A stretch of DNA of 45,393 nucleotides, from the IMG/VR virus record IMGVR_UViG_3300005548_000002, positions 1 to 45,393 of that record. One strand, given 5' to 3'. Numbering within the stretch: position 1 is the first letter of the stretch; each line of letters starts with the position of its first letter. This stretch comes from a virus. The notes beneath the pieces were generated by a model. It did not search any database and was not told the DNA's origin. It worked only from the letters and a program-made list of their open reading frames with translations. The translations under genes were made by a program, and so were the position numbers. Shown here one piece after another: positions 24,030-34,671 of this stretch.

Positions 24030-24889
24030 GCGAGACCTACACCGTCCGTGACGTACGCGAGGGGAAGGTGAAGCCCAACCCTCACGGCGGCGGCAACCTC
24101 CAGGCCTTCTACGTGGACTTCGTACGCCCTGACGGCAAACTGGAAATGGGCGTCTACTGGCAGCGCAAGGAGGGCAACGCCCCGCAGCCGGAGGAATCTG
24201 TCTTCGGAGACATCACCGAAGGTGACTACGGCCCTCGCTTCAAGCAGGCGAAAGGTGGTCCTTCACACAACGAATCTTCCACGGGCAATGCTCCGGGGTC
24301 GTCCAGCGGCAGGACTCCGGGTTCTGGACCCGGCAACGGTGGTTCGAATCCATCCCCCGGAACTAACGGGACGGACTGGGAGGTCAGGAACGCCGAAATC
24401 CGCAGGCAGCACTCGCAGGAGATGAGTGTTCGGGTCCATGGCTACGTCGGTGCCTTCTCCGCTGAGCTAAATCAGGCGGGGATCTCGGACCTCACGAAAT
24501 CGAGTATCGCCGTTCTCGCCGACTGGTTCGACCAGGACGCCATAGCCGCCGGCCAGAAGGCGAGTCAGGGCGCAGCATCGACGAGTGGCTCACCACACTC
24601 GTCGCCTCCTCCCCAGGGTGCTGCCCCTGACTCGTTTTCAGCCGGGGAAGAACACCAATGGCTGGAAAACCTCCTGATCCAGGGAGGGGCATCAACCTAC
24701 GGCGCAGGGAAGCTCGCCAACTTCGCATTGGAGGAGTTGAGCCCGGAGAACCTCAAGAAATGCGAGGCCCTCCTGAGCAACCTGGACTCCCAGGTCGAAG
24801 GCCGTGAACGGCTCGAAACGAGCTACACGAAGGCCAAGGGTGAACCGGTCCCGCAGGTCGACCCCATCGACGACGACCTTCTGTTCTGA
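24026..24889 (+). CDS. SSB-like protein candidate (N-terminal domain, Gly/Ser/Pro linker, acidic C-terminal tip)
   Basis: 287 aa. The C-terminus 'DPIDDDLLF' resembles the SSB 'DDDIPF' tip, and the middle is low-complexity. Confidence 0.35.
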   Translation: MSETYTVRDVREGKVKPNPHGGGNLQAFYVDFVRPDGKLEMGVYWQRKEGNAPQPEESVFGDITEGDYGPRFKQAKGGPSHNESSTGNAPGSSSGRTPGSGPGNGGSNPSPGTNGTDWEVRNAEIRRQHSQEMSVRVHGYVGAFSAELNQAGISDLTKSSIAVLADWFDQDAIAAGQKASQGAASTSGSPHSSPPPQGAAPDSFSAGEEHQWLENLLIQGGASTYGAGKLANFALEELSPENLKKCEALLSNLDSQVEGRERLETSYTKAKGEPVPQVDPIDDDLLF

Positions 24890-32866: not shown

Positions 32867-33144
32867 GCCCTGAACAGCAGTCAGGTAGCGAGAGGGTGGA
32901 GTACGCGTCTTGCAGTTGCGGCACGCCGAATTGCCCGGAGCTTGGCTGGCCCCACGAATGGGACCCGATCGCAGCGGGGGATAGCTGCTCCGCCTCGGTT
33001 CCTCCAGCGATCTTCACCTGCTCCATCGAGCAACTGAAGGCCGGCTGGCAACCGCCCGTCCACAAGGTGACGGAGCCTTACGTCCGCTGGGGATCGGGTT
33101 ACGGCTGCGTCGAGTGCGTCGAAGCGGAGTCCGGCGATGACTGA
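32863..33144 (+). CDS. Hypothetical Cys-rich protein
   Basis: ATGA overlap with the upstream gene. Its 3' end overlaps the tnpB start by 8 nt. Confidence 0.45.
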   Translation: MSPEQQSGSERVEYASCSCGTPNCPELGWPHEWDPIAAGDSCSASVPPAIFTCSIEQLKAGWQPPVHKVTEPYVRWGSGYGCVECVEAESGDD

Positions 33145-34336
33145 GCACACCGAGAGCAAGGTGAATCGGATTTACCGCTACAGGCTCTACCCGTCGCGCC
33201 GACAGGCGGCGGCGCTCGAGGCCCAACTCGCCTGGGCCTGCGATCTCTACAACGCGGCGCTCGAGCAGCGCCGCACCGCGTTCCGCGATTTCGGCGTCTC
33301 GGTGCGACTCAAGGATCAGCAGCACGAGCTGACCGCCCTGCGAGGTGACGGCCCGCAAATGAACTACGTCTGCCAGGAGATGGTCCTCCAGCGGTTGAAC
33401 CTCGCCTTCGAAGCGTTTTTCCGGCGCACGAGGAACGGCGAGAGGCCGGGCTTCCCTCGATTCAGAGCAAAATCCCGGTTCAACACGCTCGCCTGGCGCA
33501 GGCGCCAGGGCGGGGCAGCGATCGTCAACGACCGCCTGCGCATCCAAGGCGTCGGCCACCTCAAGGTCAAATGGCATCGCGACCTCCCGAGTGACCCCAA
33601 GCAGACGCGAATCACTCGCAAGAACGGCCGCTGGTACGCCGCGTTCACCGTGGAGGTCGAGCGTCAGCCGCTCACCCCTACGGGTCGTGAAATCGGCGTC
33701 GACCTGGGCGTCCGGCAGTTCGCCACGCTCTCCGATGGTTCACATGTCGTCGGTCCGCGTCCTGGCCGAGTAGCGGCCCCCGCGATCCGGCGGGCCCAGC
33801 GTAAGGTCGCCCGTCGCCACAGAGGTAGTCACCGCCGCCGCAGGGCCGTCGCTGAACTTGCACGCCGTCGCGAGCGGGAGGCGAACCGCCGGCTCGATGC
33901 CGCCCATAAGGCTGCGAAGGGCTTGGTTAATGACTTCGACCTGATCGCCGTCGAGGATCTCCGCCCCGCCAACATGGTCCGGGGCAACCGCGGTCTCGCC
34001 CGCGAAATCAGCGACCAGGGCTGGTCCACCTTCTTGCAGTGCCTCGAAGACAAGGCTGAAAGCGCCGGTCGCCGAGTAGTCCGCGTCAACCCCCGGAACA
34101 CGTCACGTTGCTGCTTCGAATGCGGTGCCGTCGATCGTGACTCCCGCAAGGGGCCGCGCTTCGTCTGCACGACGTGCGGCCACACGGATGACGCTGACGT
34201 AAACGCCGCCAAGAACATCTTGGCCTTGGCCCGGACGGGGCCGTCAGGCGCCAACGCGAATCTAGTTCTCGCGTTGCCTGAGAAGCCGCAGCAGCGGAGT
34301 CGTCACTTCGGCTCAGGAGCAAAGGGGATCGCATGA
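33137..34336 (+). CDS. tnpB: TnpB (IS200/IS605-family OrfB, RuvC-type RNA-guided nuclease)
   Basis: 'RIYRYRLYPS' N-terminus. 'GVDLG' (Asp), 'IAVEDL' (Glu), CxxC...CxxC zinc ribbon, 'DADVNAAKNI' (Asp). 399 aa. No adjacent tnpA. Confidence 0.85.
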   Translation: MTEHTESKVNRIYRYRLYPSRRQAAALEAQLAWACDLYNAALEQRRTAFRDFGVSVRLKDQQHELTALRGDGPQMNYVCQEMVLQRLNLAFEAFFRRTRNGERPGFPRFRAKSRFNTLAWRRRQGGAAIVNDRLRIQGVGHLKVKWHRDLPSDPKQTRITRKNGRWYAAFTVEVERQPLTPTGREIGVDLGVRQFATLSDGSHVVGPRPGRVAAPAIRRAQRKVARRHRGSHRRRRAVAELARRREREANRRLDAAHKAAKGLVNDFDLIAVEDLRPANMVRGNRGLAREISDQGWSTFLQCLEDKAESAGRRVVRVNPRNTSRCCFECGAVDRDSRKGPRFVCTTCGHTDDADVNAAKNILALARTGPSGANANLVLALPEKPQQRSRHFGSGAKGIA

Positions 34337-34340
34337 AGAC
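34200..34340 (+). ncRNA. Candidate omega RNA (reRNA) scaffold overlapping the tnpB 3' end
   Basis: Two abutting hairpins at 34252..34276 (perfect 8-bp stem) and 34277..34317 (6+3 bp). A/T-ending codons are locally enriched. The position matches where omega RNAs lie in characterised TnpB elements. The ends are not defined. Confidence 0.35.
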
Positions 34341-34671
34341 CCGCATCTGGTCAGACGAGGCCCTGGCCAAGAGAGCCGAAGGCTGCCGAGTCTGCGGGAG
34401 GACCGACCGCGTCGAGCTTGCCCACGTCACGGGCCGTATCCACGATCGTCCCCGCACTCCGGGCTCCAAGACGGTCTACGTCGAGCCTGAGTCCGTGGTG
34501 CCCCTCTGCGGCCCTGCGGTGGACCCTGGGACCTGTCACCACGCCCACGACTCGCATCGGCTGGATCTGTTGCCGTACCTCCATCTCGAGGAGCAGATTC
34601 GCGCCGTCGAAGACGCCGGCTCCATAGGCCTAGCCCTCCAGCGGATCAGTCCCGAGAAGGCAGCCGCATGA
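34333..34671 (+). CDS. His-Me finger (HNH-like) protein candidate
   Basis: 'CRVCG......ELAHV.GR', 'VVPLCGP' and 'CHHAHD'. ATGA overlap with tnpB. Confidence 0.45.
   Translation: MKTRIWSDEALAKRAEGCRVCGRTDRVELAHVTGRIHDRPRTPGSKTVYVEPESVVPLCGPAVDPGTCHHAHDSHRLDLLPYLHLEEQIRAVEDAGSIGLALQRISPEKAAA

Follow-up and report, generated by a model that had tools for sequence, protein, structure and literature searches.

A predicted omega RNA scaffold, and its guide, at the 3' end of a phage-borne tnpB gene

The stretch of DNA analysed here, which we call the window, is a 45-kb metagenomic phage contig (45,393 nucleotides (nt); IMG/VR record IMGVR_UViG_3300005548_000002; ENA ERZ27251944 k141_5945483) with integrase, HNH, GIY-YIG and terminase genes. 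We propose that its positions 34226-34306 encode the omega (right-end) RNA scaffold of the TnpB protein encoded at 33137-34336. From the comparison of sequences reported below, we put the probability of this assignment at about 0.8. An earlier sequence-only reading of the window had placed an omega-RNA-like structured element within the 3' end of tnpB. Frame-independent conservation and covariation bear out that prediction; the same alignments move the end of the scaffold, and with it the predicted guide.

The protein has the features expected of the nuclease of an OMEGA system. Its Pfam domains are HTH_OrfB_IS605, OrfB_IS605 and Cas12f1-like_TNB, its PHROGs match is 'transposase' (phrog_506), and residues 10-365 align with the ISDra2 TnpB structures 8H1J and 8EXA (E about 2e-48). 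Both the RuvC D/E/D triad and the zinc-finger (TNB) domain are present, and the triad shows no variation in an alignment of 39 homologous proteins. Searching with the protein gave about 40 homologues at 61-80% identity, of which some are named as proteins of Solirubrobacterales metagenome-assembled genomes (MAGs), and many more at about 50%; about 1,700 have E <= 1e-20. Among the isolated phages of INPHARED the top protein matches are just 32-37% identical. The encoded tail had been said to lie beyond the last catalytic motif, and it does: D354, in the motif DADVNAA, is encoded at 34196-34198, and the alignment with ISDra2 stops at residue 365. Since the predicted RNA starts at codon 364, it would overlap only the dispensable C-terminal tail, as in ISDra2.

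What is conserved at the end of this gene is the DNA and not the peptide. In the 39-protein alignment, the C-terminal tails past TGPSGANA look unrelated, yet ..RSRH.., ..ESS.. and ..GVVT.. recur in them; these are the three reading frames of a single DNA motif, GGAGTCGTCAC. Conservation of the DNA continues through GCCTGAGAAGCC-N-CGGAGTCGTCAC, past the stops of the open reading frames (ORFs) in loci L004, L005 and L014. Because three reading frames are used and conservation extends beyond early stop codons, the constraint falls on nucleotides rather than protein, as the suggestion of constraint at the RNA level had supposed. The 81-nt element is kept at the nucleotide level in about 23 tnpB loci. 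A scan of IMG/VR for the motif GAGAAGCC-N3-9-GGAGTCGTCAC found two loci only.

Where does the scaffold end? Ten close loci, aligned at the DNA level from the DADVNAA codons, lose homology exactly after GTCGTCAC at 34306. The same sequence terminates the element in six distant loci and in one solo copy, and four further loci called by the covariance model described below end in ..CAC. The boundary consensus, in 17/17 aligned loci and the four model-called ones, is (G/A)TCGTCA(C/T) or ..CAC, with homology gone right after it; motif and break recur in relatives of about 50% identity on MAG chromosomes. The DNA directly after the scaffold is non-conserved in every locus, and the flanks are unrelated among the aligned loci. 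This is the arrangement of an OMEGA RNA, in which the scaffold stops at the right boundary of the element and a variable guide is taken from the flank. In the window the boundary falls 30 nt short of the tnpB stop and 26 nt short of the next gene.

The conserved block folds into a common structure. RNAalifold analysis of 17 loci over 34226-34306 gives three helices (P1, P2 and P3) with 25 pairs, 12 of which show compensatory changes. Overall, 93.6% of paired cells can pair, against 83.3% in shuffled alignments (0/500 as good) and 29-47% when the partners are slid. G-U pairs in the helices appear on the + strand only, as expected of a conserved, structured sense-strand RNA overlapping the tnpB 3' end. 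P1 is 100% paired in 20 distinct sequences, with the compensatory variants GGCTC/GAGCC, GGCGG/CCGCC and GGGCC/GGCCC. The two helices of P2 are 95% and 87% paired, and eight of its 13 pairs are changed on both sides (for example, CAGGC/GCCTG to CGAGC/GCTCG). P3 is 96% paired, with CCCT/AGGG, CCAC/GTGG and CCTG-type variants. A covariance model, R1, built from the 17 scaffold sequences scores 92.6 bits at 34226..34306, its sole match in the window, and retrieves the element from six more distant tnpB genes absent from the training set, each time at the 3' end (E 1e-4 to 3e-9).

The scaffold probably reaches 5' to about 34208. A tentative additional helix, P0, can be read there from the alignment: GCCAAG/CTTGGC in the window, L026 and L027 becomes GCGAGG/CCTCGC in L014 and L033 and GCGAG/CTCGC in L005, by paired changes in Lys/Arg, Leu and Ala codons. 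P0 is missing in L003 and weak in L031 and L032.

A pseudoknot would tie the two ends of the core together. The loop of P1 is complementary to CGUC at scaffold positions -6 to -3, with full pairing in 21 of 23 sequences. Compensatory variants are GACA:UGUC (L007), GACC:GGUC (L027) and GGCU:AGCC (L024), and L006 has the wobble version GGCG:CGUC. Jointly, P1 and the pseudoknot are 96.7% paired compared with 87.9% in shuffles (0/500) and 19-62% in slid controls; the pseudoknot helix by itself is 92.5% paired. Thus the window has a pseudoknot formed by the nucleotides just 5' of the guide, another feature of OMEGA RNAs, though few independent events attest it.

Two abutting hairpins had been drawn at the end of tnpB, and both exist at the positions given for them. 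The first, CAACGCGA / TCGCGTTG (34252-34259 / 34269-34276, with a 9-nt loop), is conserved: six of its eight pairs (34254-59 / 34269-74) make up the inner helix of P2, in which four of the six show compensatory changes across the 17 loci. The second fares differently and is taken up with the guide. The codons across the hairpins had also been said to end in A or T unusually often. The bias is present and modest: the G+C content of third codon positions (GC3) is 0.64 in codons 372-399 compared with 0.79 in the gene and 0.78 in its neighbours, and about 9.5% of 28-codon windows are as low. Folding, proposed as a check on 34150..34400, gives weak evidence for larger segments (z = -1.5 for 34150-34400; z = -0.5 for 34245-34335). 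The core alone folds better (z = -2.26, with 3/200 shuffles equally good), and its minimum-free-energy (MFE) structure is the covariation consensus. The other proposed check, covariation among homologous elements, supports the helices and the pseudoknot.

Table 1. Positions in the window of tnpB, the predicted omega RNA and the adjoining features
Feature	Position	Strand	Basis or remark
tnpB ORF, 399 aa	33137..34336	+	ISDra2-like RNA-guided nuclease (predicted) by Pfam and PDB matches
RuvC triad	D189 = 33701-03; E273 = 33953-55; D354 = 34196-98	+	aligned to the ISDra2 catalytic D/E/D
Omega-RNA scaffold core (predicted), 81 nt	34226..34306	+	17-locus nucleotide alignment; 3' end is the element's right boundary
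Helix P0 (tentative), GCCAAG-AACAT-CTTGGC	34208..34224	+	5' of core; read from alignment
Helix P1, GGCCC / GGGCC, loop GGACG (34233-34237)	34228..34242	+	loop is the 5' strand of the pseudoknot
Helix P2	34244..34281 (outer 34244-50 / 34275-81; inner 34254-59 / 34269-74; loop 34260-68)	+	covariation and MFE
Helix P3, inner CCGC 34286-89 / GCGG 34294-97, loop AGCA	34282..34301	+	invariant GA..TC closing pairs
Pseudoknot 3' strand, CGUC	34301..34304	+	pairs with GACG 34234-34237; followed by AC (34305-06), then the guide
Predicted guide, 16 nt TTCGGCTCAGGAGCAA, up to 20 nt ending ..AGGG	34307..34326	+	first non-conserved DNA past the scaffold
3' arm of the second hairpin, CGGCTCAGG	34309..34317	+	in guide/flank, beyond the homology block; not scaffold
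Next phage gene, 112 aa	34333..34671	+	ORF list; begins 26 nt past the scaffold end

Several points weigh against an omega RNA here. The covariation of the pseudoknot comes from only three or four independent variants, and two distant members, L008 and L018, misfit it at their model-called 3' ends. At 81-100 nt, the core is shorter than the 116 nt of ISDra2. Rfam 15 has no family at the gathering threshold over the scaffold and none at E up to 10 in 34100-34400, so that the assignment is made by analogy and not from a curated model. In relatives that carry tnpA, the scaffold sequence doubles as the right end of the transposon, and part of its conservation could therefore serve TnpA at the DNA level. 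No empty site was found among phages with homologues of the downstream gene (L036, L037 and L039) or of the upstream gene (L058 and L059), in which the neighbouring genes differ; the target-adjacent motif (TAM) is for this reason not inferable. Nor do the left flanks supply a TAM: apart from a GAGG resembling a Shine-Dalgarno site and RTGA at the start codon, the phage loci have nothing in common there.

In the two misfitting loci (L008:1592-1700 and L018:1826-1930), a partner for P1-loop positions 8-11 (CGCC and UGCC, respectively), followed by CG, lies close to the called end, roughly 27 nt 3' of it in L008 and roughly 7 nt 5' of it in L018. The two may represent a sub-family in which the pseudoknot is shifted and P3 is longer. 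A pseudoknot partner in the coding region upstream of the core was also considered; its positions were inconsistent, and it was dropped in favour of the P1 loop.

The conserved block might be nothing other than the DNA right end of an IS200/IS605 element, a set of hairpins for TnpA on single-stranded DNA, with no functional RNA. Single-stranded DNA also tolerates G-T pairs, and distant relatives at 42-54% identity (L009-11, L015, L019 and L025) carry a Y1 tnpA directly upstream of tnpB. These relatives also have a left-end imperfect palindrome, the boundaries of which could not be fixed from three sequences, and the imperfect palindrome of their long P3 resembles this left-end hairpin upstream of tnpA. 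A left-end-like motif just ahead of the start codon is common to L006, L016 and L017 as well. Yet the helices persist where the transposition parts are gone. In 11 close-clade copies P3 is 3-5 bp (4 bp in the window) compared with 5-8 bp in distant copies, among them every one that has tnpA or a left-end motif. Neither is present in the window or its close clade, where P1, P2 and the pseudoknot still covary. TnpA requires one subterminal hairpin at the ends of IS200/IS605 elements, fewer than the three helices and pseudoknot found here, and their topology fits that of the solved ISDra2 omega RNA. Moreover, the roles of right-end DNA and RNA overlap in canonical elements and are not exclusive. 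We therefore regard a purely DNA-level role as improbable.

A tblastn search with TnpA found nothing genuine in the window or in the phage loci. A single row listed for the window was spurious: the tnpA-like stretch at 33056-33136, upstream of the tnpB start, is an alignment extension with a stop inside. The window has no left-end motif, and close loci have no DNA in common upstream of the start codon beyond a Shine-Dalgarno-like motif. The tnpA gene or end palindromes that would mark an autonomous or TnpA-mobilisable IS200/IS605 element are thus lacking from this copy. Its P3 corresponds to the right-end subterminal palindrome in a shortened form; it looks as though the part bound by TnpA was trimmed and the remainder of the RNA retained. 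TnpA probably no longer mobilises the window copy, which has no tnpA, no recognisable left end and a shortened right-end palindrome.

About 35 nt upstream of the tnpB start in L016 and L017, which are tnpB-only chromosomal copies, lies the left-end-like motif CCGTCCG(A/T)GCC. By eye it matches, at 10/11 bases, the reverse complement of the 5' arm and loop of P1 (GGC(C/T)CGGACGG; 34228-34238 in the window), giving about 11 nt of complementarity between the two ends in these copies. The motif is missing from the window.

A second rival, of similarly low probability, is that the cassette is a decaying relic whose tnpB and RNA no longer function in the window phage. The window copy lacks tnpA and a left end, and its ORF no longer ends at the ancestral stop but runs on into the flanking DNA. 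The TGA within GCCTGAGAAG ends tnpB in chromosomal relatives and three short-contig copies; in the window and the phage loci L026, L027, L028, L031, L032 and L033 the ORF instead crosses the scaffold, in three frames, and continues into the guide or flank. A scaffold without tnpB also exists (L035). Decay is difficult to reconcile with the roughly 40 homologues at 61-80% identity in which the ORF is full-length and the catalytic and zinc-finger residues do not vary, or with the compensatory changes that preserve the RNA helices within the close clade. In 7/7 phage loci the tnpB ORF also ends between -8 and +1 nt relative to where the next gene begins, a count that gene-start calls may bias. 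This coincidence points to selection on expression and suggests selection for translational coupling.

The tnpB-less copy, L035:1256-1333 (IMGVR_UViG_3300036818_000088), is a full scaffold that scores 84 bits with R1. It directly follows an unrelated 189-aa ORF, and its homology to tnpB-bearing copies begins only some 10 nt ahead of P1. It may have arisen by deletion, or be an omega-RNA-like element of a solo or orphan kind.

Which nucleotides serve as the guide? The ISDra2 TnpB of Deinococcus radiodurans takes a 16-nt guide from the flank DNA right after the right end (PMC8612924), and the sequence-only reading was right to look for the guide directly 3' of the scaffold. Because homology between loci stops at 34306, the predicted guide is 34307-34322/26 (TTCGGCTCAGGAGCAAAGGG), its length of 16 nt being taken by analogy from ISDra2. 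That reading, however, supposed that the scaffold ends near the tnpB stop and made the start of the next gene the guide (ATGAAGACC... / ATGAAGACCCGC). Homology breaks well before the stop, the pseudoknot strand lies two bases before the break, and the predicted guide is the spacer ahead of that gene. The same nucleotides encode the last nine TnpB residues and the ribosome-binding region of the next gene.

A scaffold that runs to the tnpB stop, takes in the second hairpin (34277-34317) and leaves the start of the next gene (ATGAAGACCCGCATCTGG) as the guide has very little to recommend it. The second hairpin can be drawn in the sequence, and the scaffold of many IS605 elements reaches past the tnpB stop codon. 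In the window, however, this hairpin (arms CCTGAG..CCG / CGG..CTCAGG, 34277-34288 / 34309-34317) joins the scaffold to the flank or guide. Its duplex of -12.8 kcal/mol is equalled or bettered by 12% of shuffled flanks. Equivalent pairing is absent from most of 20 loci, which show no consistent complementarity between scaffold and flank; the conserved alternative is the short CCGC-AGCA-GCGG hairpin at 34286-34297. The homology of all aligned loci ends at 34306, and the 30 nt from there to the stop differ in each. The pseudoknot that precedes the guide in ISDra2 maps here to 34301-04. Finally, the stop of tnpB in relatives falls inside P2 (the TGA of GCCTGAGAAG), so its position is not tied to the end of the scaffold. 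Hardly credible at all is conservation of a C-terminal TnpB peptide, or of a fold in the phage mRNA that serves termination or translational coupling. In favour, the window codes for protein across this region and the coupling of tnpB to the next gene is tight. Against, the frame analysis already contradicts a peptide, with three frames over one DNA block and conservation past stop codons, and chromosomal IS copies whose downstream DNA is unrelated conserve the element just as well.

The window contains no second copy of the predicted guide at up to three mismatches. A scan of IMG/VR with the 16-nt guides of the window and L003 returned chance 16-mers only, with no extension past 16 nt.

If the assignment is correct, the omega RNA would derive from a sense transcript that runs through tnpB. 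This RNA would fold into P1, P2 and P3, with the P1 loop forming a 4-bp pseudoknot with the CGUC two bases before the 3' end, and would carry the next 16-20 nt or so (34307-34322/26) as its guide. TnpB, with its intact RuvC triad, would bind the RNA as a ribonucleoprotein and cut DNA in which a TAM is followed by TTCGGCTCAGGAGCAA... Its own locus would be spared, we propose, because the scaffold end ..GTCAC, and not a TAM, precedes the target there. That TnpB is programmed against genomes lacking the insertion is plausible; the natural phage target would be the same junction in a co-infecting relative without the cassette, making this a case of RNA-guided homing or exclusion. As the guide matures, the polycistronic RNA would be severed some 10 nt ahead of the ATG that opens the next gene, in which case a given molecule could yield a guide or be translated for the next gene, but not both. 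Self-processing by TnpB is described in PMC10278001.

At the tnpB start, the ATG overlaps the stop codon of the ORF before it; at the other end, the TGA shares bases with the ATG of the following ORF (34333). Close-clade copies on long contigs are all found in phage-like gene arrays, and their tnpB runs in the direction of the operon. The junction of tnpB relative to the dn1-family gene differs among phages: a homologue of the downstream gene lies immediately upstream of tnpB in L026 (3645-3965) and 1.1 kb downstream of it in L028 (6525-6857). This recurrent nearness may reflect co-conversion or merely a shared early-gene module. We infer that the cassette of tnpB and omega RNA persists or spreads within the phage early operon and is kept there under selection.

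A further step, which we offer with more doubt than confidence, is that the close clade, the roughly 40 TnpBs at 61-80% identity, is a TnpA-independent cassette of tnpB and omega RNA acting as an RNA-guided, free-standing homing endonuclease of phages. It would have shed its left end and most of the TnpA-binding palindrome, and would be joined to the early operon at the level of translation, with an ORF that runs across the cassette's scaffold and guide. Cutting of junctions that lack the cassette, followed by its copying through recombination, would let it pass between co-infecting mosaic phages or keep such phages out. Relative to the dn1-family gene, tnpB lies at varying junctions; no empty allele of the window junction was seen among the phages with homologues of the flanking genes. 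The review PMC13565253 treats 'transposon non-restorative homing' into co-infecting phages as a theoretical possibility.

Other features of the region bear less directly on the RNA. The 112-aa product of the downstream gene has homologues at 59-73% identity that share the N-terminus MK(T/S)RIW. It matches no family in Pfam or PHROG, so that the label 'His-Me finger' given to it earlier is unconfirmed. Among the isolated phage genomes of INPHARED, the 5-kb region is unmatched in near mode, and so is the 117-nt scaffold in distant mode. A tRNA gene at 24292-24362 (+; RF00005, 58.6 bits) is the sole Rfam match in the window at the gathering threshold. The scaffold and the first part of the next gene are bracketed by an inverted repeat of 14 nt with 86% complementarity (TCTTGGCCTTGGCC / GGCCCTGGCCAAGA; 34218-34231 and 34359-34372), which is probably due to chance in GC-rich DNA and is not conserved elsewhere as far as checked.

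An omega RNA in the 3' end of tnpB has been textbook knowledge since 2021, and finding one here is for that reason expected. The interest lies mainly in the phage-embedded, TnpA-independent state of the cassette and not in the existence of the RNA. The guide given earlier would direct a search for targets, or reprogramming, to the wrong 16-20 nt; 34307-34322 is a corrected, testable one. The covariation-backed structure, with its pseudoknot and covariance model, describes a compact (about 81-100 nt) and uncharacterised omega RNA family from uncultured Solirubrobacterales and their phages. The window is also an example of phage tnpB cassettes that lack the parts for transposition by TnpA while nuclease and guide RNA are still under selection, so that RNA-guided homing or phage-phage competition becomes a directly testable hypothesis.

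Among known systems, ISDra2 is the closest in layout. The window TnpB is homologous to it end to end and keeps the RuvC D/E/D triad, and the predicted RNA likewise lies over the part of tnpB that follows the last catalytic motif, at its 3' end. Both RNAs have several stems, a pseudoknot made by the bases just upstream of the guide, and a guide derived from the flank. In ISDra2 the omega RNA has several stems, a terminal hairpin and a pseudoknot between -5..-3 and -105..-103 (PMC10097598). The pseudoknot partner in the window lies in a hairpin loop about 70 nt upstream rather than about 100 nt; we claim a likeness of layout and no similarity of RNA sequence. The TAM of ISDra2 is TTGAT. The window copy differs from ISDra2 in lacking tnpA and a left end and in having an ORF that runs on across scaffold and guide. 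Canonical IS200/IS605 elements (IS608, ISDra2) are instead matched by the tnpA-bearing relatives L009-11, L015, L019 and L025, with their Y1 tnpA and a left-end palindrome resembling the long P3, whereas the window and the close phage clade have no tnpA or left-end motif and a P3 of 3-5 bp.

Two further systems are comparable. TldR, a phage-encoded, TnpB-like RNA-guided repressor, resembles the window system in pairing a protein of the TnpB family with a guide RNA next to it, in temperate phages; TldR proteins are said to be nuclease-dead, whereas the RuvC triad of the window protein is intact, without the catalytic loss that defines TldR, and its guide is plain adjacent flank. PMC10705468 and PMC13418256 describe TldR proteins as RNA-guided transcription factors that regulate flagellin. 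The free-standing homing endonucleases of phages (T4 seg/mob) resemble the window cassette in being nuclease genes set between phage genes, in operon orientation and at varied junctions. They differ in that recognition is protein-based there and would be RNA-guided in the window phage.

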